Made by a program: the position numbers and the translations under genes
Notes under the pieces: model-generated
Database searches by the model: none
What the model was told of the DNA's origin: nothing
What the model saw: only the letters and a program-made list of their open reading frames with translations
UHGV virus genome: UHGV-0071094
DNA from: a virus
Length of the DNA: 31,554 nt
Reading direction: 5' to 3' (one strand)
Part shown: positions 1 to 18,886 of the stretch, piece after piece
Position numbering within the stretch: position 1 is the stretch's first letter
Layout: the number at the start of each line of letters is the position of its first letter

Positions 1-95
1 CCCAAAGAATGTGATGAATGTACTCAGAAGTCTTCCTGTGCTGGTTATTTCAGTTCATCAAAAGGCCGTTTTCATCAACCACCGAGACCAATTTT

Positions 96-731
96 ATGAA
101 AAAATTTAATTTCGCTGCTCTGCTTCCGGGATTTTTAGCACTCAATAATTCTGTATGGGCAAGTGATTCCTCCACTGGTGCAAGTGATTTGCCCGGTATG
201 ACTCTTAATGAGCATGATTTAGTTATAGCTCCACTTAACACGGAAGTACCTTTCTACATTGCAGGGCATCGTAGTCATAGCTCCCATCGAAGCCATAGTT
301 CTCATAGATCTTCGTCTGGTGGTGGGTACTATGGTGGAAGCACTCCTTATTATCCTAAAACATACAGTTCACCAAGCTCATCAGGCTCATCCACTTCAGG
401 TACAAATTCGCCATCGTCTTCTTCATCTGTTCGTTCGCTTCGCTCTAATGACGCCGATGCCTCTACGACCACAAACTCTGCTGGAATGAATGGAACTACT
501 CGTGCAAGTAGTGGGCTGGCTTCTGATACTGAAAAGCGTAAGCGTTTGATCATGCGAGTGCAGTTCGCATTACTGGATAAAGGGTTTTATAACGGCAATA
601 TAGACGGAAGTATGGGGCCTGCGACACGAACTGCTATCAAAAATTACAGAGTTGCATATGGGCTTCCTACTCCAGTAAGAGAAACATTAGATGCTCAGTT
701 ATTGAACTCTTTGAATATACTGGCTCGTTAA
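96..731 (+). CDS. Secreted protein with His/Ser-rich low-complexity region and C-terminal putative peptidoglycan-binding domain
   Basis: ORF 18..731; internal Met at 96 gives a signal-peptide-like N-terminus (MKKFNFAALLPGFLALNNSVWA); HRSHSS x3 and a Ser-rich linker; C-terminal ~60 aa (RVQFALLDKGFYNGNIDGSMGPATRTAIKNYRVAYGLPT) resembles the PG_binding_1 consensus. Start codon choice is inferred. Confidence 0.55.
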   Translation: MKKFNFAALLPGFLALNNSVWASDSSTGASDLPGMTLNEHDLVIAPLNTEVPFYIAGHRSHSSHRSHSSHRSSSGGGYYGGSTPYYPKTYSSPSSSGSSTSGTNSPSSSSSVRSLRSNDADASTTTNSAGMNGTTRASSGLASDTEKRKRLIMRVQFALLDKGFYNGNIDGSMGPATRTAIKNYRVAYGLPTPVRETLDAQLLNSLNILAR

Positions 732-749
732 AATATTAGGTAAAATAGA

Positions 750-2357
750 ATGAAGATAAAACTCTCTATTTATAAAACAAAAAGGTTTAGCGATGATATT
801 GATCAGGTTTTGAATTTGGAAAGGGTCAAAAGACCTGTTGAATTCGAGATGGAGGATGCACGAGCATATCTATATGTAAAGGAGTACATGGACCCAAAAC
901 CTCCTGAATGGACCACCTTTTTTATGGACCAAAATCCTGGCATAGAACCTGATTTCTTCGGTATGAATAGTAGCACAGGAGCAGTATTAGTTATTGAAGC
1001 TAACAATTCCAGATATCTTATTCCCTTTGGAACCGGTCATCACTTAATCAATGATGGCAGCATTGTCAAAGGATTTGGGCTTAAAACAACTCTTAATAGT
1101 ATAGAACATAAAAAAATTCGCAGTTTAGATAAAGGCAGTCACAACGAAACGAACCTGTTAACTCGCAGTCAGAGCAGTAAAGAAGTCGATATATACAACC
1201 TAAAAATAGATTCTGAGATGGATATTCTCACAACTCTCACAGGCACTTCGACAGAAGATATTTTAGGAAGTAAAATTACTGGCAAAGATGCTTTTGTGAT
1301 CATGCCGGATATTGAATTGAAGGCTATTCCAGCACTATTGACCAAAATAGACTCTATTTACTTATTACCTCTTCCTGAAGAATTCGAATGGGTTAACAAT
1401 ATCAAGGAGGCTGATGAACAAGAAGTTGAGATATTGGATTCGCTTTTGATTGATCGGATAAAGGAAAAAGACTTCAATGATTTATGGCTTGGAGAGCCAG
1501 AAATAGTAGACTGGGAAAATCAAATAGGCTATTGCTTTGATAAGAGACAAAGATTCATTCATGAAACCTTATCAATATACCATGTTTGTGATTATTTTGA
1601 TGGTAAGAAAACTGAAGTAACTGTTGATGAACTCAAAAAAAATTATCTGCATGTTTTGAATGCCGATTTTGAATCGATAAAAAAATGGTCTTTATATAGG
1701 TGCCTCTATGCCGAGATAAAAGAAGGTGATCAGAACTATATTCTTCGAGACTCTATATGGTATGTTGCAGATAGGAATTTTGTATCGACTATTGATGATG
1801 AAATGAAAAAAATAATTCATTATGAGGAGTCGGATAAATTCCCTGTATATTCATATAAACGAGAGGAGGATTATAATAAAAAACTTTGCCAAGATGATAA
1901 TTCCTTTACACACATGGATCAGAAATTCATTCATCATGGTGGTGGTAAAAGTAAGATTGAATTTTGTGATCTTATCAGAGGTCAATCAGATTTTATCCAT
2001 GTAAAATATTATACTGGTTCGCAAAGTATGAGCCATCTTTTTTCACAAGGATTTATAGGTTCTGAACTTTTTATAAGTGACTCTGAATTTCGAGGCAAAC
2101 TTAATGAGAAACTACCTGCTCATATAAAATTAGCCGATCACATAAATAGACCAGATGCTAAAAAATATAAACTAGTTTTCGCCATAGCTTCTAATAAAAA
2201 TCTTCCCGAAGATTTACCTTTGTTTTCTAAAGTAAACTTGAAAAATTTCCACAAGAGTATTACCAATTTTGGGTATGAGGTCAGGATCTGCAAAATTGCT
2301 GTGGACCCAGATATTTATAAAAAGAAGCTATGTAAACCACAAAAGAACAAGCTTTAA
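750..2357 (+). CDS. Hypothetical 535-aa protein of unknown function; possible nuclease-like C-terminal region
   Basis: Long uninterrupted AT-rich ORF starting 19 bp after the stop of the upstream gene (operon-like). No canonical NTPase motif seen. C-terminal segment IEFCDL...SDFIHVKYY loosely resembles a PD-(D/E)xK-type pattern (weak inference). Confidence 0.5.
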   Translation: MKIKLSIYKTKRFSDDIDQVLNLERVKRPVEFEMEDARAYLYVKEYMDPKPPEWTTFFMDQNPGIEPDFFGMNSSTGAVLVIEANNSRYLIPFGTGHHLINDGSIVKGFGLKTTLNSIEHKKIRSLDKGSHNETNLLTRSQSSKEVDIYNLKIDSEMDILTTLTGTSTEDILGSKITGKDAFVIMPDIELKAIPALLTKIDSIYLLPLPEEFEWVNNIKEADEQEVEILDSLLIDRIKEKDFNDLWLGEPEIVDWENQIGYCFDKRQRFIHETLSIYHVCDYFDGKKTEVTVDELKKNYLHVLNADFESIKKWSLYRCLYAEIKEGDQNYILRDSIWYVADRNFVSTIDDEMKKIIHYEESDKFPVYSYKREEDYNKKLCQDDNSFTHMDQKFIHHGGGKSKIEFCDLIRGQSDFIHVKYYTGSQSMSHLFSQGFIGSELFISDSEFRGKLNEKLPAHIKLADHINRPDAKKYKLVFAIASNKNLPEDLPLFSKVNLKNFHKSITNFGYEVRICKIAVDPDIYKKKLCKPQKNKL

Positions 2358-2517
2358 ATAAATTTTTCAATGCCAGAGACGTTTGCCAGTTCATGCAGAA
2401 AATCGCTTTTGTAAGTTACAGTCCATGTATCTTGGTTTAGAACAAAGTGGTGTCAAAAAAGGTTTATGCCTTGGGAGGGAATAAGGGGCTGGGAAATTTA
2501 ACCCCTTATAGAGTTGT

Positions 2518-2738
2518 TATGCCGCAATAGCTTTAAATTTTTGAGCAATGACATAATCACTCCACCACTGCATGAGAACCATTCGTTCTGCGAGATACTC
2601 GGCACGATTATAGGCTGCAATTATTTAATCTTTCTTCGAGTGGGCAAGGGCCGCTTCTAAGACACCAGTCCTGAACTTACCAGATTCCTCTGTCGCTGTT
2701 CTCGCAATAGATCTCATTCTGTTAACCATAAGTTCACC
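2518..2738 (-). pseudogene. Remnant of a tyrosine integrase 3' end (last ~65 codons, internal TAA)
   Basis: Minus-strand translation gives ...SGKFRTGVLEAALAHSKKD*IIAAYNRAEYLAERMVLMQWWSDYVIAQKFKAIAA*, matching the C-terminal motif of P4-type integrases (compare int at 12083..13345). About 85% identical over ~170 bp to 6490..6660. Confidence 0.55.
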
Positions 2739-2856
2739 TCCTTAAACCGTTCGAATAATTACGGCTTATACTGCCTACTTATGCTAATATCTAAGAGAAG
2801 CCATTGTGGTTGTGTAAGTATACTTCTTGGTTTATTTCGACTATAGAAAACCATAC

Positions 2857-3753
2857 CTATGACTGGCTGTTTTCAGCAAGAGTCTTATCATCTAAAGAAT
2901 TTATTTTCGAAATTCTTTTTAACTCATTAAGATAATCAACCTCGTTTTCCAAGAACCAATGAAGAACTTTAGAGTTACCAAGTAATTTATTAATATATGA
3001 CTGTATTATAACGAATTTCAACATATCTGAGCCATACTCGGTTTGAAGCTTTTTTGTTTCTTCCGAAGTTGTTGCCATTTCTTGTTCCAGACGAAGTATG
3101 GTTTTTTTTATGTCCTTTTTATAGGGAGTGTTTTTCCCTTTATTTACTATCATTGATGCCGGTGTTGCATCCAAGATGCTCATTGCAAATTTTTTACTAT
3201 AATTATCAAAATTAATCATTGTACCGACTGCTTCAATTTGACGAATTGGTTTCATTTTCCTCAAAACATCAAATGTAGCCTTAGGTATAGGTTTATCAGA
3301 AAGTTTCGCAATCACACTTGGATCTATACCGTTCATTACATTAGCTTTATCTTTTATGGCATCAACAGATATGCCCAAAGCAGCACTAAGTTTTTCAATT
3401 GATACTTTTGCCAGAGACTTAATTATCATTCTATGTTCTTCAACTACATTTATATGATTCACTTGTTTGTTAGGAGTGAACGCATCATCTATGCTCGAAA
3501 GTATACATGGAGCTTTTTCTATGCCTAAATCTTTTAAAGCCTCAACCCGCAAATGGCCATCGAGTATCTTAATGGCATCTTTATCTTTGTCATAGAACAC
3601 TATTATTGGTTCAATAATACCTAAGCTTTCAATTGAGGTAACTATCTGATGATATTTATGACTTAGCTTTACATTTTCTAACAATTCCTTAGAGGGAATT
3701 AACTTGTTAGTTTCTAAATAAATAAAATTGTCGCCAAAACGTATCTGAATCAT
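2857..3753 (-). CDS. ParB/Srx-superfamily (ParB N-terminal domain-like) protein
   Basis: 298-aa ORF with ILDGHLRVEALKDLG motif typical of the ParB N-terminal nuclease-like domain; start overlaps the stop of the upstream gene by 4 nt. Confidence 0.6.
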   Translation of the reverse strand: MIQIRFGDNFIYLETNKLIPSKELLENVKLSHKYHQIVTSIESLGIIEPIIVFYDKDKDAIKILDGHLRVEALKDLGIEKAPCILSSIDDAFTPNKQVNHINVVEEHRMIIKSLAKVSIEKLSAALGISVDAIKDKANVMNGIDPSVIAKLSDKPIPKATFDVLRKMKPIRQIEAVGTMINFDNYSKKFAMSILDATPASMIVNKGKNTPYKKDIKKTILRLEQEMATTSEETKKLQTEYGSDMLKFVIIQSYINKLLGNSKVLHWFLENEVDYLNELKRISKINSLDDKTLAENSQS

Positions 3754-4646
3754 TTTGATGCCTCTTTGTTTATTGGATTGAGGATCTGAGATGGCAGTTC
3801 TGATAGATTCTCTTGTTCAAGTATATTTTGAAAGCTTTTATTCATCATTATGACGTTAAAAATCTCATTTACTATCAGCAAGTTAGTTTTAATAAATTTA
3901 GAGTTGTTATAAACAGATTTATGTTCAGCGATACTATTTTCATAAAGCTCAATTAACTCCTCAGCAGTCATTCTTTTTGATGGTTTGTGATAATAAAACC
4001 CGGCTGCTTTTGCACCTTTATTCCCAATTGTTCGCTGATTTAGAATGTGTTTTATCTTTATAATGTCCCGGCTTTTTATTAATTTTTTATCATATGCTTC
4101 GGTAAGAATATCTTGTGCTTCTTCAGTGTCACATCTTGCAAATTGTACTGCGAGATACAGAGGCAAATTCCCCCGTTCGACTGCAGAGAGAAGTTTATGC
4201 TCTCCCTTATCAAGAAGCATATTTATACTGCTCACCCAGTTCGATGAATACCCAGTAATCTCACTTATTTCGGAGTCTGAAAGTCCTCTGTTTTTCATAT
4301 CTTTTATTATCTGTAATAACTCATTGGAACGTGGTCTCCTCCTTGCAATGTTTTCAACCAAACTCATAACATAAGCATCTTCTTCTGATACATCTCTTAT
4401 AATTGCTGGAATAATGGTTTCACCTAATGCAACGAGCGCCTCTATTCTCCCTTGGCCACAAATTAAAGCATATTTGAAGTCGTCTTCATCAATCGCTCTT
4501 ACGCTTATAGGCTTGCTTAACCCTCTTTTTTTTATGCTTTCCTTAATTTCTTCATGCACTACCTTATTTCTAGTTCGCGGGTTAAGAAATTTTATTTTGG
4601 CAATTTCAATTTGGATTATTGGGAATTCATTTGATTCAGGCAGCAT
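3750..4646 (-). CDS. ParB/RepB-like protein (ParB N-terminal domain)
   Basis: 298-aa ORF; GQGRIEALVALG and VENIARRRPR motifs resemble ParB box regions; overlaps the upstream recombinase gene by 11 nt. Confidence 0.6.
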   Translation of the reverse strand: MLPESNEFPIIQIEIAKIKFLNPRTRNKVVHEEIKESIKKRGLSKPISVRAIDEDDFKYALICGQGRIEALVALGETIIPAIIRDVSEEDAYVMSLVENIARRRPRSNELLQIIKDMKNRGLSDSEISEITGYSSNWVSSINMLLDKGEHKLLSAVERGNLPLYLAVQFARCDTEEAQDILTEAYDKKLIKSRDIIKIKHILNQRTIGNKGAKAAGFYYHKPSKRMTAEELIELYENSIAEHKSVYNNSKFIKTNLLIVNEIFNVIMMNKSFQNILEQENLSELPSQILNPINKEASK

Positions 4647-6192
4647 ATAGTTCCCTCACTTTCATGCGAGTAATAATTTGTAGAAGTTTATCCAGATTAT
4701 CAAATCTATAGAGATCTAATCGAATGTTGTTTGTTTCCGTCATCCACATTTTACTATATTCGTTTTCAATCTTTGGTATGATATAAAAATCAAGTGGTGA
4801 AATATTTTGTGAATCCATTCGTATAACAATTGTTATGTCTGCTTTCTGTGAGTTATCAAACCGGACTTTCCATCTGAGTTTACCCGATTTCATATGTGTG
4901 CATTTAGTAATAAGGACGGAAATTAAAAACTCATCATTGATGTAAAGCATTGGTGCATATTTATATTCGTCTATATAGCAGTTGCTTTTTAAAATTTCCC
5001 CCTTAAAATCCTCAATTATGCCTGAGTAAAATGATCTTAGTGCTTCATTTATTTGGATATAGCTGTAATCATGTTCTGGCTTATAACCAATCAAAGTATA
5101 TGCTCTTAAAAGACCACCAAATCGGGTTCTGTAAACAGAAGATGAAGGGCCTGTATCATCTTCATCAATGATAAAGCCAGATAGTTTTCCATTAGATTCT
5201 AATTTTTGTTTTAGCTTTTCTAAAAGCTCTTCATTAGTCAAATGTACGGATCGGAGCTGAATTATTTCTTGAGCTTTATTATATTTTTTCTTTGAAATAA
5301 TGGGTTTATATGCCTTGTCGCATCTAACCCATTCATTTTTTGGGTTTTTTACAAGCCTACTTTTTAGTTTAGATGAGGTTTTGTTATATATGTTATTTCC
5401 AATATATTTTTCATTTGTCAAGATTTGATGTATTTTTGCACGAGTCCATAGTGTTCCATTTTCTGCAGGTATATTCTGTTCATTTAGTCTCTCAGCAATA
5501 ATGAATTCTGGCATGTTATCATCTATAAAGAGATCATAGATGCTATTTACAATTTTTATCTCATTTTTTGGTCCCGGAATTAATATCACCCTATCTGTTT
5601 GAATACTCTTTCTTTTGCGGAAGCCCAATATTTCTTTAGCTATGCCATTTTCATCTACTAAAAGACGTCTTAGCCCATAACCAGCCATTCCGCCTTGATG
5701 ATAACCAAGCTTTATTAAATTTGCTTGCCCTATAAATACCTTTTCTGATAAATTCCTGCTGTGATATGCAGCACTAGATCTTTTTATATTCAGTATAACA
5801 GAAGACTCTAAAGGGAAATCTTTAGTGGGAATAGGTTCGGAACAGTATATAAGATCTACACCGTTTCTCTCAAATAGAAAGGAATAATATGCAGCTTCAT
5901 CACTATTTTGAAAACGACCAAAACGGCTCACATCATAAAATAATACAGCCTGTATATCTATTTTCTTTTGTTCTACATCACTAAGTAACTGCTGCAAAGA
6001 ATGCCGGCCTATGATACTGACTCCGCTCTTACCTGCATCATCGTAGGTATAAGCGATTTCCATATTGTTCTTTTCAGCATAATCTTTGATATATTCGGAC
6101 TGATTATGTAAAGAATATTGCTGATGGTCGGTAGACATCCGCAAGTACTGTGCGACCCTAACTTTATGATTTTTATCATTTTCGCTAGCCAT
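4636..6192 (-). CDS. Large serine recombinase (resolvase N-terminal catalytic domain plus recombinase domain)
   Basis: 518-aa ORF; N-terminal VAQYLRMSTDHQ motif with catalytic Ser as in the resolvase/invertase domain; size and C-terminal extension typical of large serine recombinases. Confidence 0.8.
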   Translation of the reverse strand: MASENDKNHKVRVAQYLRMSTDHQQYSLHNQSEYIKDYAEKNNMEIAYTYDDAGKSGVSIIGRHSLQQLLSDVEQKKIDIQAVLFYDVSRFGRFQNSDEAAYYSFLFERNGVDLIYCSEPIPTKDFPLESSVILNIKRSSAAYHSRNLSEKVFIGQANLIKLGYHQGGMAGYGLRRLLVDENGIAKEILGFRKRKSIQTDRVILIPGPKNEIKIVNSIYDLFIDDNMPEFIIAERLNEQNIPAENGTLWTRAKIHQILTNEKYIGNNIYNKTSSKLKSRLVKNPKNEWVRCDKAYKPIISKKKYNKAQEIIQLRSVHLTNEELLEKLKQKLESNGKLSGFIIDEDDTGPSSSVYRTRFGGLLRAYTLIGYKPEHDYSYIQINEALRSFYSGIIEDFKGEILKSNCYIDEYKYAPMLYINDEFLISVLITKCTHMKSGKLRWKVRFDNSQKADITIVIRMDSQNISPLDFYIIPKIENEYSKMWMTETNNIRLDLYRFDNLDKLLQIITRMKVRELYAA

Positions 6193-6489
6193 GCACGAAA
6201 CCTCATGGATGATTCAATACAATGTAGATGATAAAATTGATCAATTTCTAACCAATTTCAACTGTTTTATCATTGATTAGAGCGAATTTAGTAAATCTTC
6301 GAGGTGTATGATAATCGAGAAGATATGTGAATTATGTAGCTGATATGACCAACAGCTTTCGGTATGTGGCCTCAAGTTACCCATCCGTAAATGGCTATGC
6401 TTAGTCAACATTTGTTAATATGTGTGATTATAATTCTTTAACTAAATCAAGATAGTTAACCCATCAGGGGAGAGTTATGCGGCAATAAC

Positions 6490-6955
6490 TTAGCATTTTT
6501 GAGACGCAACATAGTCACTCCACCATTGCATGAGAACCACCCGTTCTGTGGGATATTCTGCACGATTGTAGGCTGCAATTATTTCATCTTTCTTCGAGTG
6601 GGTAAGGGCGGCTTCGAAGACATCAGTCCTAAACTTTCCAGACTCATCAGCAGCATCGCATACCGTGAGCTACAAGCTTACCTCCGAACCCCATACGGAT
6701 TATGGCCGCATTAGCTGTTTGCTCATGCATATGGTTAAGAGGAGCCTTTATGCTTGGAAACACCCATTCACGATGCCCACTTATCACTTTCATTGACTCT
6801 AGGACTCGTAAAGCTTCTTTGCTTAGTGGAACTTTGTGAGGCTTCTTCATTTTCATAAACTCAGCCGGGATGTTCCACATACCAGTTTCTATATCAATAT
6901 CTGTCCATCTTGTGCGAACCGCTTCAGCGGGCGAACCCATGTTAGAAGTTGCCAC
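6490..6955 (-). pseudogene. Truncated, frameshifted tyrosine integrase (C-terminal catalytic half only)
   Basis: ORF 6647..6955 encodes an integrase catalytic-domain segment (WTDIDIETGMWNIPAEF...HREWVFPS...AHGMR). The C-terminal ...DESGKFRTDVFEAALTHSKKDEIIAAYNRAEYPTERVVLMQWWSDYVASQKC* continues in another frame (about 14-nt deletion relative to the copy at 2518..2738). The N-terminal ~220 codons are absent. Confidence 0.7.
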
Positions 6956-7377
6956 TCAATCAGTAGCCTTGTTTCTAACCGGATAGAAGCATTGTTTAGA
7001 GCAACTAGGAAGCGGGGGGATTACTGTTTCTGGTAAAGACTCTTTTGGTGGTGAACTGGACGCCTGGAATCAATATGAGAAAACTACTTAGTGCAACAGG
7101 AGCTGAATTAACTAATGGTGTAACATTACCTAGTGGTTGGCTTGTCAGTGGTATGAGCAAGGGAGCCAATAATCCTGAAAATTTAAGAGCGTTTGCTGTT
7201 TGTATGAGACAATGGCAGCATAAAAATTCTAGGATAAACTTTTGCCTTAATTAAAATGATAGGTGGTATATTTATAGGGGTTATCTTAGGAAGAATATTT
7301 TTAATGCTATTGATGAGAAGTATCGGACATGATTTAATGTTGTTTATGTTTTAGAATTCTCATATTCAGGCGGTTTC

Positions 7378-7743
7378 ATGATAAAACAGAAGTTAAAGAA
7401 TGACTGGGATATTCCTGCAATTCTTCGTCTTACTAAAGAACAAAAAAGGCTAAAATTGTCTGTTCAAGAAGTTGCAGACCTTCTGGACTTAAGCTCATAC
7501 TTTTTTGAGTTAGCTGTCGATGAGAAGGTGGATTTCAAATTTTATGACCTTCCTGAAAAGGTTAAAAAAAAGCTGCATTATGCAGGTTTTGATATTTTCT
7601 ATTTAATGACTGGTGAGTATTCAGGTAGTGAACCGGCATTGAAAATCGCCAGTTTTGAATATTCTATAAAGGATATGTCTCCTGAAGAAAAAAATGAAGT
7701 GAGAGTGTTGATAGAAAATATACCGATAACAAAACCACACTAA
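7378..7743 (+). CDS. Hypothetical 121-aa protein
   Basis: AT-rich ORF with no recognised domain; weak RBS; immediately upstream of a membrane protein gene. Confidence 0.4.
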   Translation: MIKQKLKNDWDIPAILRLTKEQKRLKLSVQEVADLLDLSSYFFELAVDEKVDFKFYDLPEKVKKKLHYAGFDIFYLMTGEYSGSEPALKIASFEYSIKDMSPEEKNEVRVLIENIPITKPH

Positions 7744-7812: not shown

Positions 7813-8436
7813 ATGGCCTTATCATCTGTAGCTATTGTGGCTGGTGTAGCTACTTTGGCAGCATCTCTTTTCAAAAATACAGAACTTCGGGTGATAGATA
7901 TCGTTGAGTTGTCAAAGCTCAGTGTTAACGATATTGAAAACAACCCTCAGTTAAAAATTGTCAAAAATGATATTAATGAACATATAACAGGCATTAAAGA
8001 CCCTGCATTTCATGAGGTTCTAATTGAAATTATGGCTAAGCATAATAAACCTGTTGGTTACTTCAAAAAAGTTGATGGTAGGTTGCAGTATGACCATTCC
8101 TATTATATTTCAATTAATAAGATGGGCTGGGGGCAATACATTAAAAAGTTAATTAATAATCCAAATGATTGGGTTGCAACTTTGATATATGTTATTTTTA
8201 TTATAACAATGTTCGGAATAGCAGTAGATCTTGATAAGGATCCACAAACATTTAATCAAGGTCTGTCTATATTTTTATCAGGTATGGGGGGATTAATGTT
8301 TAGCTTTTTATTAAAAGGCTTATCGGTTCAATGGAGAAATAGCTTTCATAATGTCAAGGATTTCGAATATAAAGAATTGTTTAAAGAGTACGCTAACAGT
8401 AAAATAGATGAAATCATATCATCAAACTCTAAATAA
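7813..8436 (+). CDS. Hypothetical membrane protein (207 aa)
   Basis: GAGG RBS 6-8 nt upstream; hydrophobic segments (ALSSVAIVAGVATLAASLF; WVATLIYVIFIITMFGIAV; LSIFLSGMGGLMFSFLL) suggest about 3 transmembrane helices. Confidence 0.5.
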   Translation: MALSSVAIVAGVATLAASLFKNTELRVIDIVELSKLSVNDIENNPQLKIVKNDINEHITGIKDPAFHEVLIEIMAKHNKPVGYFKKVDGRLQYDHSYYISINKMGWGQYIKKLINNPNDWVATLIYVIFIITMFGIAVDLDKDPQTFNQGLSIFLSGMGGLMFSFLLKGLSVQWRNSFHNVKDFEYKELFKEYANSKIDEIISSNSK

Positions 8437-8539: not shown

Positions 8540-8872
8540 TTAAGTATTATCTTTAATCGTTGTTGTTGTTCCGTTGGTTTTCACGGAAGCGATACCTTTT
8601 TCACGGGATTGTTTGGTCGAGTACATCTGGCTTGTACCGATCACATGATGATTAGCCGCCCGTAGGTTAAAATAGGACTTGCCGTTAGATGAGTCTTTCA
8701 GATCGTAGCGTTCATCAAGTGGGCTGTTTGCCTGAACTGATATAATGCCATTTTCTGCAGAACTCTTGGTTGTGTAAAGCTCGCTGGTGAGGATAATTTC
8801 TCCATTACCGGCTTTCAGAACAAATTTATACTGTTCATTACTGCTCTTATCCAATTCGAACCAACCAGCCAT
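8540..8872 (-). CDS. DUF1508 (YegP-like) tandem-repeat protein
   Basis: 110-aa ORF with two internal repeats (...YKFVLKAGNGEIILTSELYTTKSSAENGIISVQ / ...YFNLRAANHHVIGTSQMYSTKQSREKGIASVK) characteristic of the DUF1508/UPF0339 family. Confidence 0.65.
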   Translation of the reverse strand: MAGWFELDKSSNEQYKFVLKAGNGEIILTSELYTTKSSAENGIISVQANSPLDERYDLKDSSNGKSYFNLRAANHHVIGTSQMYSTKQSREKGIASVKTNGTTTTIKDNT

Positions 8873-9650
8873 ATTAACTCCTTGATAAAGTTGTGATTTT
8901 TACGGCCCAGTGATGAAGAACGAAGCGGGCAAGTTCAGTATGCCTGAAACAAAAATTGTTTCCAATATGTTATGTTTGTATCGGTAGCTGGGAACAAGAC
9001 TACACACTACGAAATGAGGCTTAGCTGTCGCCCACCAGTGTTGGCAGGTATGCCTTAGTGGGAGTCTTAGAGCGGAGGGTATCTTGAATCAATGTCTATT
9101 GCCATATTTACACGACACACGATATATTTTCTTTAGAGTCATATCTTAGGAAACAATAACGGCGACTTGAGCAAAAGTATCTAATATCAATAGATTTTCG
9201 TTAATTTAAAAAAATAGGTGCTCTCTCATAAAATCTGTAGGGTACTTGGTCGTGAATAAATTGCTGAGTTCATGTTGCGATGTCATTATTTGTCATCTTC
9301 CATGTCTCATAATTATCCTAACGTATAGGTTCAATGAAATTCCTTTATTCCTGTGTCTAATCTAATCAATCTAGCAATCTAACCAAACCTGTGTGTGGCG
9401 ATTTTACCTTGTTTAAATGTTCTAGGAATGCCTTTATCTTTTAGTATTAATTATATTAAAGGTTTACTTTCACGATGAGTATTTGCTGTTTCATCGGGAG
9501 GTTAAGATATTCATAATCTATCCTGACTGTAACGAAGATTAATCATTGATTTTATTTATATGTGAAAAAATCACTTTAAATATTGATTTTTTATGATTTA
9601 TGTAGTTTAATTTAAATGTATAGGTGATTTTTTCACATTGGAGAGGTGCT

Positions 9651-11009
9651 ATGTTAATCAGATTCTCAGTCGAAAACTACAAGTCATTCAGAGATAGAGT
9701 CGAGTTTTCAATGGTTTCGAGTAAAGTTCGAAGCCATCCATCACATGTCGTTAAGGCAACTTCTGCGAACGATATAAGTGTGTTAAAAGTTGGAGTTATC
9801 TATGGAGCTAATGCTTCTGGTAAATCCAACATCATCAAAGCAATGAAACATGCTCAAAATATGATTTTGAAAGGAAGTAAAGCTGGTACTAACCTTCCCT
9901 ATGCACCTTTCAGGCTTGATGATGATTTTGAAAAGAAACCCAGCAGATTTGAATTTGAAATTAAAATCAATGGCAAGAACTATGCATATGGATTCTCAGC
10001 TGATCAAAAATCCATTAAAGAAGAGTGGTTGTATGAAATAAACAAGAAGGATGACATTCTTATTTATGAAAGAAGTAATACAACTCACTTTAAATTTGAA
10101 AACATAAAATTTAAAAATGAAGAAGACGAACAATTCCTAAACTTTACAGCAAGAGGAACAAGCGAAAACTCTTTGTTTTTGTACGAATGTTTTGATAGGA
10201 ATGTTCTGAAGGATTTGAATTACATTGTACCAATTTCTGATGTTTTTAAATGGTTTAAAGCTAAGTTACAAATAGTTTTCCCGAATTCTAAATATAGAGA
10301 CCTAGATTTTGGATCTGCTTCTGATGAAAAAGAAGGAGAGCTTATAACTGATATTCTAAAAGATTTTGATACCGGTGTGTCAAAGTTAGTATTAAGAAAA
10401 GTTAGTTCATTTGATGATATAAAACTTCCTCCCAATTTCAAGGACCAGATCATAGAGGATCTTAAATCTAGTAAGGCTGTTGTAATTTCAGGGCCAAGAA
10501 ATAAACGATATAAAGTTGAACTGGGTGAAGATGGAGAAATAACGGTATTTCAATTGATGACGGCCCATAAAGATAAAAATGGTGATGATGTATATTTTGA
10601 ACTCAACCAGGAATCAGATGGTACACAAAGACTTTTTGATATTATACCTGGATTAGTCGAACTTATGTTGAAAGACAAAGTTTATATAATTGATGAAATT
10701 GATCGTAGTTTGCATCCAAAGATTACAAAAACATTTATGAAATTATTCTCTATGAAAACTGTCGGTAAAGACAGTCAACTGATAGTCACCACTCATGAAA
10801 CCGGTCTTTTAGATTTTGAACTTATACGAAGAGATGAGGTTTGGTTTACTGAAAAAAATAAAAGTGGAATTTCGAGAATTTATTCACTCGAAGAATTCCA
10901 GCCTAGGTTTGATAAAGATATACGTAAAGGTTACTTAGTGGGGCGTTTTGGTGGAATTCCTAAAATAAAGAATATATTATCAAACGTTGAAGATTTTCAG
11001 AAGGACTAA
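9651..11009 (+). CDS. ABC/SMC-like AAA ATPase (OLD/AbiLi-like ATPase component)
   Basis: Walker A GANASGKSN; Walker B-like VYIIDEIDRSLH; GGAGAGG RBS before the ATG at 9651 (ORF track start 9624 is less likely); stop 2 bp before the next gene. Confidence 0.7.
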   Translation: MLIRFSVENYKSFRDRVEFSMVSSKVRSHPSHVVKATSANDISVLKVGVIYGANASGKSNIIKAMKHAQNMILKGSKAGTNLPYAPFRLDDDFEKKPSRFEFEIKINGKNYAYGFSADQKSIKEEWLYEINKKDDILIYERSNTTHFKFENIKFKNEEDEQFLNFTARGTSENSLFLYECFDRNVLKDLNYIVPISDVFKWFKAKLQIVFPNSKYRDLDFGSASDEKEGELITDILKDFDTGVSKLVLRKVSSFDDIKLPPNFKDQIIEDLKSSKAVVISGPRNKRYKVELGEDGEITVFQLMTAHKDKNGDDVYFELNQESDGTQRLFDIIPGLVELMLKDKVYIIDEIDRSLHPKITKTFMKLFSMKTVGKDSQLIVTTHETGLLDFELIRRDEVWFTEKNKSGISRIYSLEEFQPRFDKDIRKGYLVGRFGGIPKIKNILSNVEDFQKD

Positions 11010-11011
11010 AA

Positions 11012-11668
11012 ATGCCTCGTGAAAGAAGAGAGTTTGACAGAAGAAGTGGGGTAAAAGACCCGTCTTTAATTGTAATTGCTTGTGAAGGAGAGAAAACAGA
11101 GCAGGACTATTTCAATAGTATATCGGAACTATGTGATGAGTTAGGATCACGTTTACAACTTAAAGTTCTCCCGCCGCGAGAAGAGGGGCATAGTGCGCCT
11201 AGACATGTTTTAGACCAAATGGATAAATATAAAAAAGAATTTGGAATTAAAGTGAATGATGAATTATGTCTGGTAATCGATAGGGATAAACAATCATGGA
11301 CAGAGGCTACTATAAGTGAAGTTGCTCAGTTTTGTCATGCCAAACAATATATTCTGGCTTTAAGTAATCCATGTTTTGAATTATGGCTTCTTATACACCA
11401 TTATGATGTAATGCTCCTCGGTGAGGATGAAAAAAGAAGTATTTTAAGAAATAAAAATGGGTATATGAAAAGCAAACTACGGGATGTTATTGGACAATAT
11501 AACCCAAGTTCTATTAATATTCATGATTTCTGGGGGGTAACTGAAATCGCGATTGACAGAGCTAAACGTTTAGATGTTAATCCAGCTGAGAGATGGCCTA
11601 ATGAAATAGGAAGTCGTGTGTATATAATCATGGAGAAAATACGTCAGTCAATTAATAATCAATTATAA
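11012..11668 (+). CDS. RloB-like / Toprim-domain protein (putative nuclease partner of the ATPase)
   Basis: 218-aa ORF; N-terminal IVIACEGEKTE and downstream LVIDRDKQ give a Toprim-like E...DxD signature; translationally coupled to the ATPase gene. Confidence 0.6.
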   Translation: MPRERREFDRRSGVKDPSLIVIACEGEKTEQDYFNSISELCDELGSRLQLKVLPPREEGHSAPRHVLDQMDKYKKEFGIKVNDELCLVIDRDKQSWTEATISEVAQFCHAKQYILALSNPCFELWLLIHHYDVMLLGEDEKRSILRNKNGYMKSKLRDVIGQYNPSSINIHDFWGVTEIAIDRAKRLDVNPAERWPNEIGSRVYIIMEKIRQSINNQL

Positions 11669-12082: not shown

Positions 12083-13345
12083 CTAATTCATTTTCTTTAT
12101 TCTCTGGGCGAATTCAAACGGTGTAATGTGTTCTTTTCTGTTGGCATTAAGGTAGTCAGCCCACCATTGTAACATGAGTTTTCTCTCTTCGAGATGTTCC
12201 GCTTTGTGGATATATGCTGCCCGAACCGAGTTACGCTCTTGGTGGCTCATTTGACGTTCTACGGCGTCTCTTGACCATAACCCAGATTCGATTAATGCAC
12301 TACAAGCCATAGTTCGAAAACCGTGACCACAAACTTCAGCTTTCGTGTCGTAACCCATGGTGCGAAGAGCCTTGTTAACAGTGTTTTCGCTGATTGGTTT
12401 GTCATCGCGACTAAAACCAATGAACATAAGATCCTTTTCTCCACTTATAGCTTGGAGCCTTTTAAATAATACTACAGCCTGCTTACTTAGCGGCACAAGA
12501 TGAGGGGTTTTCATTTTTGAGCCCCTATTTGAATACTTAACCCCCTCCAATTCTCGTCTTTCTGCAGGGATTGTCCATAAGGAGTTTTTGAAATTCACCT
12601 CAGACCAACGAGCGAATCTAAGTTCACTTGAACGGATGAAAGTCAGTAGAGTTAATTGAACTGCTATTTGAGTGATACCTTTCCCTTTATAGGCATCAAT
12701 CCGTTTGAGAAGCTCAGGAAGTCGTTCGAGGGGAAGGGCAGGGCGGTGATTACTCTTGGCAGTGGTTACAGCGCCTGCGAGGTCGTAAGCTGGGTTTTGG
12801 TCAATCAAAGCATTGTGAACAGCATACCGCATGATGGCAGTGATTCTTTGTTGTAAACGGGCAGCAAGTTCAAGATGTCCAGTTTCCTCTGCTTTTTTCA
12901 GAGGAACAAGTAAATCACGAGTTTTAAGCTCACTAATGTTCCGCTTACCGATAACAGGAAATACATGAGTGATCAGGCTGTTTAATACGGTAGTTCTGTG
13001 ACTGTCTGACCAGGTTCTGTTGCTTGAGTGCCAGTCTCTGGCAACAGTTTCAAAAATGAGTAAGCCTTTCTCTTCAATCTTTTCTGTTTTTCGCTTTTCG
13101 CCAGGGTCAACATTGTTGGCAATGAGTTGCCTTGCTTCTTCTCTTCTACGACGAGCTTCTGCTAAAGACACTTCGGGATAAACACCAAGCGCCAACATTT
13201 TTTGCTTACCAGAAAAGCGATATTGAAGCCGCCAGTATTTTGAACCCGTAGGGTGAACCAGGAGATGCATACCATCCCCATCTGTTAACTTGACGGGCTT
13301 TTCAGTAGGTTTCGCATTTCTGACTTTTACCTCAGTTAGTGCCAT
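12083..13345 (-). CDS. P4/CP4-57-type tyrosine integrase (Arm-DNA-binding DUF4102 plus catalytic domain)
   Basis: 420-aa ORF; N-terminus MALTEVKVRNAKP...KLTDGDGMHLLV...GSKYWRLQYRF typical of the P4-like integrase arm-binding domain; C-terminal HGFRTMA...AAY...LMLQWWADYL catalytic motifs. Sits at the AT-rich/GC-normal boundary. Confidence 0.9.
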   Translation of the reverse strand: MALTEVKVRNAKPTEKPVKLTDGDGMHLLVHPTGSKYWRLQYRFSGKQKMLALGVYPEVSLAEARRRREEARQLIANNVDPGEKRKTEKIEEKGLLIFETVARDWHSSNRTWSDSHRTTVLNSLITHVFPVIGKRNISELKTRDLLVPLKKAEETGHLELAARLQQRITAIMRYAVHNALIDQNPAYDLAGAVTTAKSNHRPALPLERLPELLKRIDAYKGKGITQIAVQLTLLTFIRSSELRFARWSEVNFKNSLWTIPAERRELEGVKYSNRGSKMKTPHLVPLSKQAVVLFKRLQAISGEKDLMFIGFSRDDKPISENTVNKALRTMGYDTKAEVCGHGFRTMACSALIESGLWSRDAVERQMSHQERNSVRAAYIHKAEHLEERKLMLQWWADYLNANRKEHITPFEFAQRIKKMN

Positions 13346-13520
13346 TGTGACCTCCTGATGATGGTATCTGCATTATCGAACTTACAATACCAACAGTTAT
13401 ACCAACAAAACAAGCTGGATGTCCGTATATCCCAACAGTCCTTGGTAGACCATGGTTAAAGTGTACTTCATTGAAATGATTGGGAAAAATAGACTTTGAT
13501 ATACTTCGGTAGACAGGGTT

Positions 13521-13536
13521 CTGGCGTCCCCTGCAG
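13521..13536 (-). other. Candidate prophage attR core (tRNA 3'-end-like sequence)
   Basis: Minus strand reads CTGCAGGGGACgCCA, resembling the acceptor-stem 3' end plus CCA of tRNA-Arg (argW as I recall it: ...CCTGCAGGGGACACCA); located between the excisionase and the next integrase, where an attR is expected. Confidence 0.4.
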
Positions 13537-13609
13537 ACATCTACTTGAGGCAGCAGGGGATTGATTAGAATGGTATTTTTTAGATGTGAGAAATATTTTA
13601 CCCGCTATT

Positions 13610-13810
13610 TTACCCATTGGCGCGGCTTAAGAGCTTATTTTTGAATTCACAATGGTCACGATATAACCATCTTGCTCGCCCGTGGATAACTTTGGCTTTA
13701 GGCAGGTCTCCGGACTTAATCCGGTCATAGATGAAGGTTTTACCGAAGCCAGTATCGGCCATGATGAATTTCAAATCAACCAGGGAATCAGGCTGTAGTT
13801 CGTGTTGCAT
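13610..13810 (-). CDS. torI: AlpA/TorI-family excisionase (winged-helix recombination directionality factor)
   Basis: 66-aa ORF (MQHELQPDSLVDLKFIMADTGFGKTFIYDRIKSGDLPKAKVIHGRARWLYRDH...) with AlpA-like HTH; position at the prophage end opposite the intS-like integrase matches the KplE1 layout. Gene symbol by analogy, not verified. Confidence 0.75.
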   Translation of the reverse strand: MQHELQPDSLVDLKFIMADTGFGKTFIYDRIKSGDLPKAKVIHGRARWLYRDHCEFKNKLLSRANG

Positions 13811-13828
13811 GAGTGCTATCTCCGAATA

Positions 13829-13844
13829 GGGAATCGAACCTGCA
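13829..13844 (-). other. tRNA T-arm-like 16-mer (TTGCAGGTTCGATTCC) immediately upstream of the excisionase gene
   Basis: Minus-strand sequence matches the T-stem/T-loop (GGTTCGATTCC) region of a tRNA and diverges where the acceptor 3' strand would begin. Confidence 0.45.
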
Positions 13845-13852
13845 AATCAGGC

Positions 13853-13876
13853 AAGAAAAAACCGCCATCAGGCGGC
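13853..13876 (-). terminator. Rho-independent terminator-like hairpin with U-run (minus strand)
   Basis: GCCGCC-TGAT-GGCGG stem-loop followed by TTTTTTC on the minus strand, overlapping the stop of the small ORF upstream. Confidence 0.4.
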
Positions 13877-14035
13877 TTGGTGTTCTTTCAGTTCTTCAAT
13901 TCGAATATTGGTTATGTCTGCATGTGCTATCTGCGCCCATATCATCCAGTGGTCATAGCAGTCATTGATGTTCTCTGCTTCGATAACTCTGTTGAATGGT
14001 TCTCCATTCCATTCACCTGTGACTCGGAAGTACAT
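13868..14035 (-). CDS. Small hypothetical phage protein (55 aa)
   Basis: Minus-strand ORF MYFRVTGEWNGEPFNRVIEAENINDCYDHWMIWAQIAHADITNIRIEELKEHQAA preceded by a GGAGA RBS; below the ORF-track size cut-off; the overlapping plus-strand ORF 13802..14050 is judged spurious. Confidence 0.35.
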   Translation of the reverse strand: MYFRVTGEWNGEPFNRVIEAENINDCYDHWMIWAQIAHADITNIRIEELKEHQAA

Positions 14036-14222
14036 TTATCATCTCCATAAAACAAAACTCGCCGTAGCGAGTTCAGATAAAAGAAATCCCCGCGAATGCG
14101 AGGATTGTTAGTTGCGCTCTGCTGCTGCCTTAGCCATTACCATATCCACCAAACTTCACCAGACATGATTCTCGCAATCACTATCATCACCAAAGTGATA
14201 ATCACAACTTTAACTGGCGGCA

Positions 14223-14951
14223 TCATTCACCATCCTGCTGCGGTGCTGCTGGCAGTGGCATCCAGTGGGTAATACTACCTGGATATAAACTCTTTGCTGG
14301 CCCCCAGTAGCCATCTGTATTAACACGCATAACCTCACAGCCATCAAAACCATCAGTTACAAGAACGTATTCATAAGGTTCCGGCATCCTTTCGCTTACC
14401 GGAATCCAACTATCCGGAGTTCCCGGAGAGTTGCCATTTACATCGAAGTTTGGCTCTGCGTCCTGAACCAGGAGGATGTAACCATTCTTGGCTGTATCAA
14501 GTTCTAACGCCTCGGTGACGGTGCCGAAATAGCGATTGCCTAAATCAGCATCACAAGTGCTTACATCAATGGAAACTTCCATGCCCTCGATTAATTCTGG
14601 CAAGTTGTAAGTTTGGCTTACAGGTTCGGCTTCCAGTTCTGCTATGCGCTTTTTTGCTGCTTCCAGCTCGCCAAGCAGCGCCAAGACGGTAGCCGGATTG
14701 GCTGCGGCGATGAATTCAGCATTGGCCTGCTGTTCCATTTGGAAATCTTCATCGAAACCGCTTTCAGGATGCGCTCCTTCAATTCTGCAAATGGGAATAT
14801 ATCCAGCAGCCTCGCGATGAATTAGCGCATCATCACAATCAAATCGGCTCTCTCCATATTCGAGCGACCACTCACCACACGTTGCTTTTTCTGCCGCTTC
14901 ACGCAGTGCCTGGTAATTAATTTCGCTCACTGTTTGCCTCCTTTGCGCCAC
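14223..14951 (-). CDS. Ead/Ea22-like protein with C-terminal DUF551 domain
   Basis: 242-aa ORF; C-terminal ...[35 protein letters not shown]...THWMPLP resembles DUF551; typical lambdoid early-left accessory gene. Confidence 0.7.
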
Positions 14952-15550
14952 ATCGCATTCAGATATTTGTTGTCATTAACAGAACCGAAACTCTTTCTTT
15001 TAAGCAATTCCTCTCTCGATGGCATTGGCTTTACGCGTTGGCGAATAATCATTTCTGCCGGAAGAATGCCGGGATTGTATGCAAGTCCTCTCATGGTAAA
15101 TTCCTCAGTCATTACTGATAGCGCCATAGCGTGAGCGGTAATTACGCAGGCGCGGGTCAATTTCAGGGAAGTGGGTATATCTGCATCTTTCGCATCATCA
15201 ATGCCGAACAAACCATTGAGGCAATACTTGCGTGCATAAGAGCTTGTAGCTCCAGTAACTTGTGCAGAATCCATTCCTTTCTTGCTTTCTTCCTCTCGTG
15301 CAAGAGCGGTTGCCGTATGACTGTTTTCGCCATCGGTAATAGTTGCCGTGGCTTTCACATAATACCGATCACCAATCAACACAACTTCATCGCTGATTGA
15401 TAAAAACAGGCCATTCAGTAGCGGCTTAACGCCTTCAAGAATATCTTCGCAGCTTCTGTATTTATATTTACCGAATGAGTTGTACTGATTTTTTGGCGCG
15501 TTCAGATTCTCCTGAATGGCAGCCAGTCTTGCGTAAAATTCTTTGCTCAT
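14927..15550 (-). CDS. erf: ERF-family single-strand annealing protein (P22 Erf-like)
   Basis: Translation from the internal Met ([45 protein letters not shown]...) closely resembles phage P22 Erf as I recall it; the ORF-track start 15580 probably over-extends. Confidence 0.8.
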
Positions 15551-15651
15551 ATGATTGTTCTCAGAATGGACATGGCCCAAGGAAATAACGCTGATTTAAT
15601 ACTTCGACTCGGGACAAGTTAAGGCATACCCGCATTCCTTCGCGGTCACCA

Positions 15652-15810
15652 TTATGGCGATACCAGAGAGCTTTCTGCGTGTACATGCGTCTCTGTAACT
15701 TGCTCTCCTTCACTGTGGTTGCAAGTGACATGAATATCTCCTTCGTTACCGATTAATTCTTTCATCTGACGAATGAATTCTTCGTCTGACCAGTTATCTG
15801 TAAAACTCAT
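15652..15810 (-). CDS. Small phage protein (52 aa) in the Arf/early-left position
   Basis: Minus-strand ORF MSFTDNWSDEEFIRQMKELIGNEGDIHVTCNHSEGEQVTETHVHAESSLVSP; its ATG overlaps the stop of the upstream small gene (ATGA). Confidence 0.4.
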   Translation of the reverse strand: MSFTDNWSDEEFIRQMKELIGNEGDIHVTCNHSEGEQVTETHVHAESSLVSP

Positions 15811-15959
15811 TTCCTGCGATACCATGGAAGGTTGATAGCTAATTTCATCTCTTTATTTGCTTCAAGCCACATTTTGGAATCACCAATAAATCTGGCTATT
15901 ACTGCTTTGTTTTGTGCTGCTCGAAGCATCTGGTGATTGATGGCTATTTCATTGCGCAT
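15807..15959 (-). CDS. Kil-like small protein (50 aa)
   Basis: Minus-strand ORF MRNEIAINHQMLRAAQNKAVIARFIGDSKMWLEANKEMKLAINLPWYRRK; the ...RFIGDSKMW... segment resembles lambdoid Kil as recalled; assignment tentative. Confidence 0.35.
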   Translation of the reverse strand: MRNEIAINHQMLRAAQNKAVIARFIGDSKMWLEANKEMKLAINLPWYRRK

Positions 15960-16078
15960 AACGCCTCCAGTTGTTTCTTTGCTGCTCTGATTAATTGTTT
16001 AACTCGGCGTGATAATTCAGATTCGTGCGGGTAGAAAGCGGACATGACGCCGCTACCCGCGAGCTGAAAGTGCATCAT
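15944..16078 (-). CDS. cIII-like small protein (44 aa)
   Basis: Internal start of ORF 15944..16183 gives MMHFQLAGSGVMSAFYPHESELSRRVKQLIRAAKKQLEALCAMK, resembling lambda CIII (..AG....ESxL.R....L); AAGGAG RBS upstream. Confidence 0.4.
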   Translation of the reverse strand: MMHFQLAGSGVMSAFYPHESELSRRVKQLIRAAKKQLEALCAMK

Positions 16079-16619
16079 GGGTAACTCCTTATATTTGATT
16101 GCATAACGAAAACGCCTCGAGTGAAGCGTTATTGGTATGCGGTAAAGCCGATGGAAGAATGGTTTCTTCTCGCAGGTAAGCATGATGCTTGCTGTTCTGG
16201 AATACGGAATCGAAGACGATGAAATGGCTGAATTGACTAAGCGGCTTGCCGATTACCTGACAAAAGAAAAAGCCCCGAAGAACGGCGAATTCTTCGAGGC
16301 CTGATGTAGAAAGACTGGATCAATCCACAGGAGTAATTATGACAAAACGTCGTAAGAAATACCAGGAAAAAGAAGAGATTCGACACCCTGATTCACCTGA
16401 GGGATTAGTGGTAGCCGCAGCAAATAACAGGGCGTTCGCAGAGCGCCTTGTTGGTGTTTACAGACTAGCCAAAGCAGGAGTGAAACATGGGCGTCGTTAA
16501 GTTAGCTGATTACAGGCATATCCAAACCGTATGCCTGTTGGTAGTGGTAACCAGTTGGCGAAGTGGAACGGTTGGAATTACTTCCACCGAAAGGAACCTT
16601 GCGATAACGGGAGCGAATA

Positions 16620-18038: not shown

Positions 18039-18886
18039 TGGCTGATTCGAATCTTAATGTGCCGGTAATCATTCAGGCTACACGACTCGACACATCAGTC
18101 CTTCCGCGTAATATCTTCTCGCAGTCGTATCTGCTTTACGTTATCGCACAGGGAACTGATGTTGGTAACGTGGCTAACAAAGCCAACGAGGCCGGACAGG
18201 GCGCTTATGATGCACAGGTCAGGAACGATGAGCAGGATGTGATTCTCGCTGACCATGAGCAGCGAATTTCTGCTGCGGAAGCAACGCTTGTTAATCATGA
18301 GGAGCGAATCAGCCAGGCAGAATCAACTCTTCAGGAACATGAAACGCGAATCGCTCAGAATGAAAGCGATATTGCGTCGCTTGATACCAGAGTTCAGTCG
18401 CTGGAATCGCAGGTTTCAGACCATGAATCGCGCATTGATGCTCTGGAGTATGCCACTACTCGCAAGAAGTCAGAGGTTGTTTACTCTGGCGTATCAGTAA
18501 CCATTCCGACAGCGCCGACCAACCTTGTTAGCCTGCTGAAAACGCTCACGCCGTCATCAGGATCGTTGGCACCATTCTTCGACACCGTTAACAACAAGAT
18601 GGTTGTGTTCAACGAGAACAAAACCTTGTTCTTCAAGCTGTCGATCGTCGGGACGTGGCCCAGCGGAACCGCCAACAGGTCAATGCAGCTAACATTTTCC
18701 GGTTCTGTTCCTGACACACTGGTAAGCAGTCGCAACTCGGCGACAACAACCGACAACATCCTGTTAGCTACGTTCTTCAGCGTGGATAAAGACGGCTTTC
18801 TTGCCACAAATGGCAGTACGTTAACCATTCAGTCAAATGGTGCGGCGTTTACTGCCACAACCATCAAGATAATCGCGGAGCAGTGA
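18038..18886 (+). CDS. Tail needle protein (gp26-like) with C-terminal knob, Sf6-type
   Basis: ATG overlaps the gp10 stop (TAATG); N-terminus [36 protein letters not shown] conserved with P22 gp26; heptad-like coiled-coil middle; 282 aa with a ~130-aa C-terminal extension, as in Sf6-type needles. Confidence 0.8.

Follow-up and report, generated by a model that had tools for sequence, protein, structure and literature searches.

A DUF6119/TIGR04141 gene docked behind the HXS anti-phage operon of an Escherichia coli island: a candidate single-gene defence protein of nuclease type

We analysed a 31,554-nucleotide stretch of DNA catalogued as virus genome UHGV-0071094 (hereafter, the window), which opens with two closely spaced genes: hxsA, and a longer gene for a 535-amino-acid (aa) protein of the DUF6119/TIGR04141 family, the main subject of this work. 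The original prediction, made from the letters of the sequence, had placed open reading frames at positions 96-731 and 750-2357, the second starting 19 nucleotides (nt) after the first, inside an integrase-bounded island rich in adenine and thymine (AT-rich). Both the AT-rich 535-aa frame with its neighbour and the island were borne out, the latter being a chromosomal island of Escherichia coli situated at argW/yfdC. Positions 1-7000 of the window match many complete E. coli genomes with 100% identity, and 61 of 5,426 genomes contain at least 80% of this segment. ARAGORN found no tRNA gene in the window, although the island occupies argW in related genomes.

Judged by its sequence, the product of 96-731 is HxsA, which acts in the periplasm as effector of the HXS anti-phage system. 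It scores 167.9 bits against TIGR03979 (cut-off 121.65), matches PF01471 (PG_binding_1) at residues 154-191 with an E-value of 2.3e-5, and starts with a signal-peptide-like N-terminus, MKKFNFAALLPGFLALNNSVWA; five H-x-S repeats can be read directly from residues 58-72. The earlier description of a secreted, His/Ser-rich, peptidoglycan-binding protein was accurate in each of these respects. In the identical E. coli locus (L001), hxsD, hxsB and hxsC are found directly upstream of hxsA, so that the operon has the order D-B-C-A and starts a short way before the window; the end of hxsC overlaps the start of hxsA by 4 nt. In this record, from strain CP66-6_Sichuan, hxsC is split by the IS4-like insertion sequence ISVsa5 (12165-13373), and an IS3 element lies in the locus of a few other strains. 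Among the best-matching genomes listed, nearly all have hxsC unbroken at the ISVsa5 site.

HXS was described as an anti-phage system of four genes, hxsD-hxsB-hxsC-hxsA (Li et al., Nat Commun 2026, PMC13128918), in which HxsA, after maturation by the radical-SAM enzymes HxsB and HxsC, acts in the periplasm as the effector that blocks phage DNA entry (PMC13128918). All four genes are needed, and the cloned four-gene operon is sufficient, restricting 110 of 113 coliphages, most of them at least 1,000-fold; the phages that escape are two T4-like ones and P1 (PMC13128918). According to the authors, more than 99.8% of HXS systems are made up of four proteins; a fifth gene or DUF6119 is never mentioned in their paper, nor are the source-strain flanks of the cloned operon stated (PMC13128918). 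The window shares with this system an HxsA with signal peptide, five HxS repeats and a peptidoglycan-binding domain, as well as the D-B-C-A order. Because the four-gene HXS suffices, HxsA already has three partners and a function independent of the 535-aa protein, which is not among the defining, required genes. HxsA and the 535-aa protein had been proposed as a two-gene system with a cell-wall-binding partner; HxsA works instead with HxsB, HxsC and HxsD, and the proposal is excluded by the hxsDBCA operon, by the published experiments (PMC13128918) and by the separate distributions of the two genes.

The 535-aa protein itself had been regarded as an orphan with no assignable motif, a view that did not survive a sensitive profile search. 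It matches PF19614 (DUF6119) with an E-value of 6e-127 and 424.9 bits (cut-off 27), residues 5-516 covering profile positions 1-523 of 524, and NCBIfam TIGR04141 with 521.3 bits (cut-off 35) over positions 1-516 of 516. Identical E. coli proteins are recorded as WP_000694697.1, which RefSeq likewise annotates as DUF6119/TIGR04141. These profile matches identify the protein as a bona fide full-length member of the family, whose TIGR04141 name is "sporadically distributed protein".

With a profile built from 35 homologs, and clustering at 50% identity, we found at least 4,213 DUF6119 clusters at E<=1e-3 and 2,008 at E<=1e-30. The best 150 of the 4,213 cluster representatives are 514-594 aa long, except for two 435-aa entries, and each is matched in a single stretch that spans approximately the whole protein and also approximately the whole profile (one 435-aa entry being an exception in the latter respect). 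Since lengths are alike and the single match is full-span, the architecture of these best 150 appears uniform and unfused. The family is spread over Proteobacteria; further matches come from Enterococcus plasmids and a single temperate phage. The phage match, from Pseudomonas phage vB_PaeS-D14B (L104 3989-5698; 26% identity, 97% of the query aligned), is the sole homolog among phage genomes; with an integrase gene on either side and close to an end of the phage record, it has a typical accessory (moron) position. One PHROGs family of unknown function matches DUF6119. Nothing was retrieved from PDB sequences with the family profile at E<=1, or from BFVD viral structures with Foldseek at E<=0.001, and the isolated N- and C-terminal halves, scanned against Pfam at E<=10, returned PF19614 alone.

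The C-terminal domain of the protein is modelled with a restriction-endonuclease-like alpha/beta core, the fold of the PD-(D/E)xK superfamily. Structural neighbours of the model, all with modest scores, are FokI (7.3), N.BspD6I (7.1), NucS (6.7), OkrAI (6.7), HamA of Hachiman (6.6), an XisH-like protein (6.6) and Upx (6.5), followed lower down by BamHI, LlaBIII, Can2, Shedu SduA, Bse634I and Cfr10I. A weak resemblance to a PD-(D/E)xK core had been suspected in the segment IEFCDL...IHVKYY, and this suspicion gained in substance: the segment contains the family-invariant residues E404, D407 and K419. In an alignment of 148 diverse cluster representatives and 30 members of a second, divergent clade (see below), no variation occurs in either set at E372, E404, D407, K419 and Q433, while D390 is an aspartate in 145 of the 148 representatives and in all 30 second-clade members. 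The resulting variant motif has the pattern E...D...E-x-x-D...x-V-K...Q, in which E372, E404 and Q433, along with the near-invariant D390, could complete a rearranged site. The N-terminal part (aa 1-345) contributes three further invariant positions over the same sequences, G94, G110 and W337, together with the motifs FGTGH, DFGL and GEPExxDWE and a conserved loop of low model confidence at aa ~121-165 (SLDK...RxQS). No match to known recognition domains, for example SRA, EVE, winged helix or DUF4263-associated ones, was found in these 345 residues, which may form a nucleic-acid recognition or sensor module. The protein is predicted to be cytoplasmic because its N-terminus contains no hydrophobic signal segment.

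Such an organisation leads us to propose, with a confidence only slightly above even, that DUF6119 is an autonomous cytoplasmic defence protein of nuclease type, directed against invading DNA and travelling as co-cargo with HXS. In this scenario, an N-terminal sensor or recognition region would be joined in one polypeptide to a C-terminal PD-(D/E)xK-type nuclease domain, and the protein is predicted to act alone. The closest architectural analogues might be type IV/IIS-like restriction enzymes that stand alone, or Shedu-like effectors. The gene would have been placed repeatedly in an AT-rich slot behind hxsDBCA in mobile islands of Enterobacterales, where it may complement HXS.

The two genes occur together in part of the loci: the pair recurs across Enterobacterales in two divergent clades of DUF6119, but most DUF6119 genes lack hxs and many hxs loci lack DUF6119. 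Window-like DUF6119 genes follow hxsA in Citrobacter, Raoultella, Erwinia, Yersinia, Serratia, Brenneria and Enterobacter, as well as in Pectobacterium parmentieri (58% identity), Phytobacter and further Serratia, and the spacer is 18-24 nt throughout this clade. The second clade is represented in E. coli hxs islands at ssrA (EC4, O55:H7), where a 547-aa DUF6119 protein is encoded 68 nt after hxsA. BLASTP detects no similarity between it and the window protein, the homology being apparent at the profile level only (TIGR04141 75 bits; hhalign probability 96.5%, 20% identity), and the same second-clade pair occurs also in Pantoea. With this BLAST-undetectable clade standing behind hxsA in E. coli EC4, O55:H7 and Pantoea, we dropped the view that the adjacency is a single lineage-specific accident. 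Of the 5,426 complete E. coli genomes, 156 have hxsA, 72 have a window-like DUF6119 gene and 31 have one of the second clade; approximately two thirds of the hxsA-positive genomes (103 of 156) carry DUF6119, adjacent to hxsA in every case inspected by annotation or coordinates. Co-transcription of DUF6119 with hxs is probable, given the 18-24 nt spacer and the fact that no promoter-like or terminator-like site was found in the hxsA-DUF6119 spacer of the window.

These observations are also the ground for the most serious alternative, according to which DUF6119 is a fifth HXS component, or a second layer, in Enterobacterales: a cytoplasmic nuclease that would destroy the DNA of phages leaking past, or stalled at, the HxsA gate. 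In its favour are the two clades without BLASTP similarity that both stand immediately 3' of hxsA, the frequency of the pair in hxsA-positive E. coli and its recurrence in ten other Enterobacterales genera, the short spacer free of promoter- or terminator-like sites in the window-like clade, and the gap that HXS leaves for two T4-like phages and P1, in which a nuclease could find its niche. Nevertheless, four hxs genes are sufficient and make up more than 99.8% of systems (PMC13128918). Unlike the four defining genes, DUF6119 is missing from many hxs loci and differs in base composition, and its product is predicted to be cytoplasmic, in contrast to periplasmic HxsA.

The distribution of DUF6119 speaks against this alternative as well. 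We retrieved 80 species-level DUF6119 loci with family motifs, and hxsA was found upstream only in the closest Enterobacterales relatives. Approximately 70 of the 80 loci, from other Proteobacteria and with 31-46% identity, have no hxs, no ParB/recombinase genes and no conserved neighbour. When the four genes closest to DUF6119 on either side were clustered all against all over the 80 loci, no partner family common beyond close relatives emerged; a conserved small adjacent partner, of the kind that marks toxin-antitoxin or two-gene abortive-infection systems, was not found in them, and methyltransferases adjoin DUF6119 in 2 of 105 scanned neighbours. Islets consisting of DUF6119 alone exist in various taxa, Proteus among them. 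Relatives that are close to the second clade but stand without hxs come from Proteus (74%) and from Pectobacterium brasiliense (55%), where the gene lies beside a TerB/BrxD-like/helicase cluster. In other Pectobacterium and Brenneria loci (75% identity), an intact DUF6119 gene stands behind a truncated hxsD (L009 7736-7975, L010 7733-7975, L011 ~3072-3227), of which the first ~57 aa are homologous before the sequence diverges, and hxsB, hxsC and hxsA are deleted; the hxsD stub is the scar of this deletion. Apart from these truncated genes of Pectobacterium and Brenneria, no small HxsD-like gene was found upstream of distant DUF6119 genes.

Conversely, hxs is encountered without DUF6119 on Klebsiella IncF plasmids, where the stretch homologous to the window stops at position 732 (no DUF6119 remnant was found after hxsA on the Klebsiella plasmids), in P2-like prophages of 28 E. 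coli genomes, and in Providencia and Serratia fonticola. It is also found without DUF6119 in Alcanivorax (L091 7742-9354) and Vibrio (L106 7687-9240), where the operon is prolonged by genes for a small protein of PF27798 ("His-Xaa-Ser_sys") and for a di-haem peroxidase resembling MauG. In Vibrio, hxs travels as cargo on a Tn7-like element that also encodes TnsA/TnsB/TniB, TniQ and Csy2 and looks like a CRISPR-associated transposon. Because of the ~70 hxs-free loci, the single-gene islets and the gene left intact after the loss of hxsBCA, we regard DUF6119 as independent of hxs. A fifth functional HXS gene is thus less likely than an autonomous co-cargo candidate, and we consider it improbable on the whole.

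The junction between the two genes is informative in this regard. The guanine-cytosine (GC) content drops at the hxsA stop codon, from 43.7% in hxsA to 33.9% in DUF6119, and in six loci hxsDBCA has 41-46% GC, as against 32-34% for DUF6119 of both clades, for Gabija and for the recombinase module introduced below. A comparison of junctions across loci showed that hxsA genes are homologous up to the stop codon and then break according to the downstream gene. As read from the GC contrast and from homology to DUF6119-free hxs cassettes, which stops exactly at the end of hxsA, DUF6119 is of separate origin from hxs. In Salmonella enterica subsp. houtenae, Gabija genes (GajA-like, 676 aa; GajB-like, 560 aa) occupy the place of DUF6119 between hxsA and a ParB-ParB-recombinase module (L093 8803-12512, L094 3528-7237), the latter encoding two ParB proteins of 298 aa each and a serine recombinase of 518 aa. 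Gabija has the same slot and a GC content of ~32%, but neither its sequence nor its architecture, which pairs an ATPase-TOPRIM nuclease with a UvrD helicase, is related to DUF6119, so the equivalence is positional only. Both the exchange for Gabija and the sharp GC break count further against a fifth HXS gene. In our reading, hxs forms a compact mobile cassette, and what lies 3' of hxsA in these integrative islands is an AT-rich slot for exchangeable cargo, with DUF6119 among its preferred occupants.

On its other side, DUF6119 is abutted by variants of the ParB-ParB-recombinase module (44-48% aa identity) in E. coli, Raoultella, Erwinia, Brenneria, Enterobacter, Pectobacterium and Serratia. 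Copies with overlapping frames were located at the edge of hxs islands in L083 (10609-13898), L087 (9393-12716), L093 (13045-15113) and L107 (9988-13113). The module has no PADLOC defence-system match, just a weak match of a ParB domain to a type II methyltransferase model, and no DNA match in phage genomes; a literature search on it was uninformative. It is probably an integration/maintenance module of the island, perhaps composed of the island's integrase and of partition-like or regulatory proteins. On each side of it, the window has a 3' remnant of a P4-like integrase gene, a sign of mosaic accretion. In Citrobacter (L003), a single intact integrase gene comes right after DUF6119. The remnants, taken together with the Citrobacter arrangement, suggest that islands accreted in tandem or recombined at argW.

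The neighbourhood of this module makes it tempting to suppose that DUF6119 serves the mobile element, either by assisting the serine recombinase in excision or recombination (compare XisH and XisF) or as a stabilising, addiction-type nuclease. The module adjoins DUF6119 in seven genera, and the GC content of DUF6119 (~33%) is like that of the module and unlike that of hxs (~43%). However, the module occurs in none of the ~70 distant loci and in none of the second-clade loci, and its presence beside Gabija in Salmonella shows it behaving as an island backbone with exchangeable cargo. Moreover, the XisH match reflects a generic PD-(D/E)xK fold and is no better than the matches to restriction enzymes. 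We thus find a role in the service of the element very unlikely.

Returning to DUF6119 as an autonomous defence protein, its surroundings are broadly in keeping with such a role. The island carries HXS directly upstream of it and AbiL 7 kb downstream, and neighbours of DUF6119 genes elsewhere include type I restriction-modification, Mrr, ShosA, LmuA, RadC, a TerB/BrxD-like cluster, integrases and RelE/MqsA. The distribution of the family is sporadic and associated with mobile elements. Type IV/IIS enzymes (Mrr, MspJI, the FokI cleavage domain), Shedu SduA and Hachiman HamA are stand-alone defence proteins that join a recognition module to a PD-(D/E)xK cleavage domain; DUF6119 has in common with them a single polypeptide with a C-terminal restriction-endonuclease fold. 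DUF6119 resembles these stand-alone PD-(D/E)xK defence nucleases in its location in mobile and defence islands and in having no conserved methyltransferase or other partner; as in type IV restriction, it is a stand-alone gene without a cognate methyltransferase. It differs from them in having no sequence match to any (Shedu, Mrr, NucS and others), in its beta3 motif, which is H/S/A-V-K and not (D/E)-x-K, and in an extra invariant E-x-x-D; nor does it contain the DUF4263 nuclease domain that defines Shedu (SduA). Hence the likeness is an analogy, and DUF6119 is not to be filed among the stand-alone PD-(D/E)xK defence nucleases.

Several points weigh against the interpretation that we favour. 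PADLOC-DB v2.0.0 contains no match to the window protein (E<=0.01) or to the second-clade protein (E<=0.001), and our search of the literature on DUF6119, TIGR04141, PF19614 and WP_000694697 found no functional study. Many immediate neighbours in the distant loci are housekeeping genes. The canonical (D/E) of the (D/E)xK motif is replaced by H417 in the window clade and by S or A in the second clade, so that catalysis, if any, would depend on the rearranged site. Lastly, the ties of two independent clades to hxs, with the short spacer and missing terminator-like site of the window-like clade, hint at something beyond chance co-cargo. The notion of a new defence gene, raised in the original prediction, stands as far as the defence-rich island (HXS, AbiL, and Gabija in the Salmonella slot) and the functionally uncharacterised family are concerned, but it received no backing from PADLOC.

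The replaced acidic residue and the housekeeping neighbours would also suit an inactive protein, or a nucleic-acid-binding protein without nuclease activity, engaged in non-defence DNA metabolism, the island context being incidental. Against this, four acidic residues, one K and one Q are conserved almost fully in more than 170 highly diverged sequences, as expected of a constrained catalytic or metal-binding site. A housekeeping role also fits poorly with a gene that is AT-rich, tied to integrases, prophages and islands, and present (both clades together) in only ~2% of complete E. coli genomes. We give this explanation as little credence as that of a helper of the mobile element. At the other extreme, DUF6119 might represent a large and overlooked class of single-gene anti-phage nucleases with a new N-terminal fold for sensing or recognition, recruited behind hxsA in Enterobacterales on at least two independent occasions and forming with HXS a two-layer unit, in which the HXS gate is followed by a nuclease for the escapers (T4-like phages, P1). 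This is the most speculative version of our scenario, and we deem it quite unlikely, if not as remote as the two explanations just compared.

The features of the window are collected in Table 1. Between the recombinase module and AbiL there are also two hypothetical proteins, of 121 aa (7378-7743, plus strand) and 207 aa (7813-8436, plus strand), neither of which gave a PHROGs or PADLOC match. The remainder of the window (~13400-31554) contains P22-like prophage remnants: an Erf recombinase, the stabilisation protein gp10, an antirepressor, an integrase, a tailspike with a P22 head-binding domain, gtrA and gtrB (O-antigen glucosylation) and a gtrC-like membrane protein.

Table 1. Genes, domains and other features of the window, with coordinates in window positions.
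Feature	Position	Strand	Remarks
hxsC, 3' end (radical SAM maturase of HXS)	1-99	+	Gene cut by window start; annotated hxsC in identical E. coli records
hxsA	96-731	+	211 aa; TIGR03979 and PF01471 matches
Spacer hxsA-DUF6119	732-749	+	18 nt; AGG ribosome-binding motif
DUF6119/TIGR04141 gene	750-2357	+	535 aa; PF19614 and TIGR04141; so annotated in 61 identical E. coli genomes
DUF6119 N-terminal region, aa 1-345	750-1784	+	No recognised fold
DUF6119 C-terminal restriction-endonuclease-like (PD-(D/E)xK-fold) domain, aa 346-535	1785-2357	+	
Codon of E372	1863-1865		
Codon of D390	1917-1919		
Codon of E404	1959-1961		
Codon of D407	1968-1970		
Codon of K419	2004-2006		
Codon of Q433	2046-2048		
Remnant, 3' end of P4-like tyrosine integrase gene (aa ~330-423)	2520-2801	-	tblastn with intact Citrobacter integrase, 77% identity; pseudogene in L001
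ParB/RepB-like gene	2857-3753	-	In module 2857-6192; Pfam matches over the module: ParB_N, RepB, Resolvase, Recombinase
ParB-like gene	3750-4646	-	In module 2857-6192
Large serine recombinase	4636-6192	-	In module 2857-6192
Second P4-like integrase remnant (aa ~220-423)	6478-7066	-	Frameshifted
YegP-family protein	8540-8872	-	Between recombinase module and AbiL
AbiLi AAA ATPase	9624-11009	+	461 aa; PADLOC AbiLi 303.8 bits; context, outside main finding
AbiLii/RloB	11012-11668	+	218 aa; PADLOC AbiLii 81.2 bits; context, outside main finding
Intact P4-like tyrosine integrase, argW end of island	12083-13345	-	Pfam Arm-DNA-bind_3, Phage_int_M, Phage_integrase; adjoins tRNA-Arg in L001

The family annotation and the function of HXS were already known; the repeated docking of DUF6119 behind HXS is not noted in the HXS paper. 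A large family without assigned function thereby receives a testable prediction, namely that of a nuclease with defined conserved residues, encoded in a Gabija-interchangeable slot behind HXS. If it is correct, DUF6119 would be a defence candidate of the nuclease-effector kind, in which a rearranged active-site motif is combined with an N-terminal module not recognised before; if it is disproved, DUF6119 would be accessory cargo of an integrative island. In the former case, a widespread single-gene defence family would have been missed by current defence-finder catalogues. Many natural HXS loci would then be five-gene, two-compartment loci, which bears on the HXS phenotypes of native strains.

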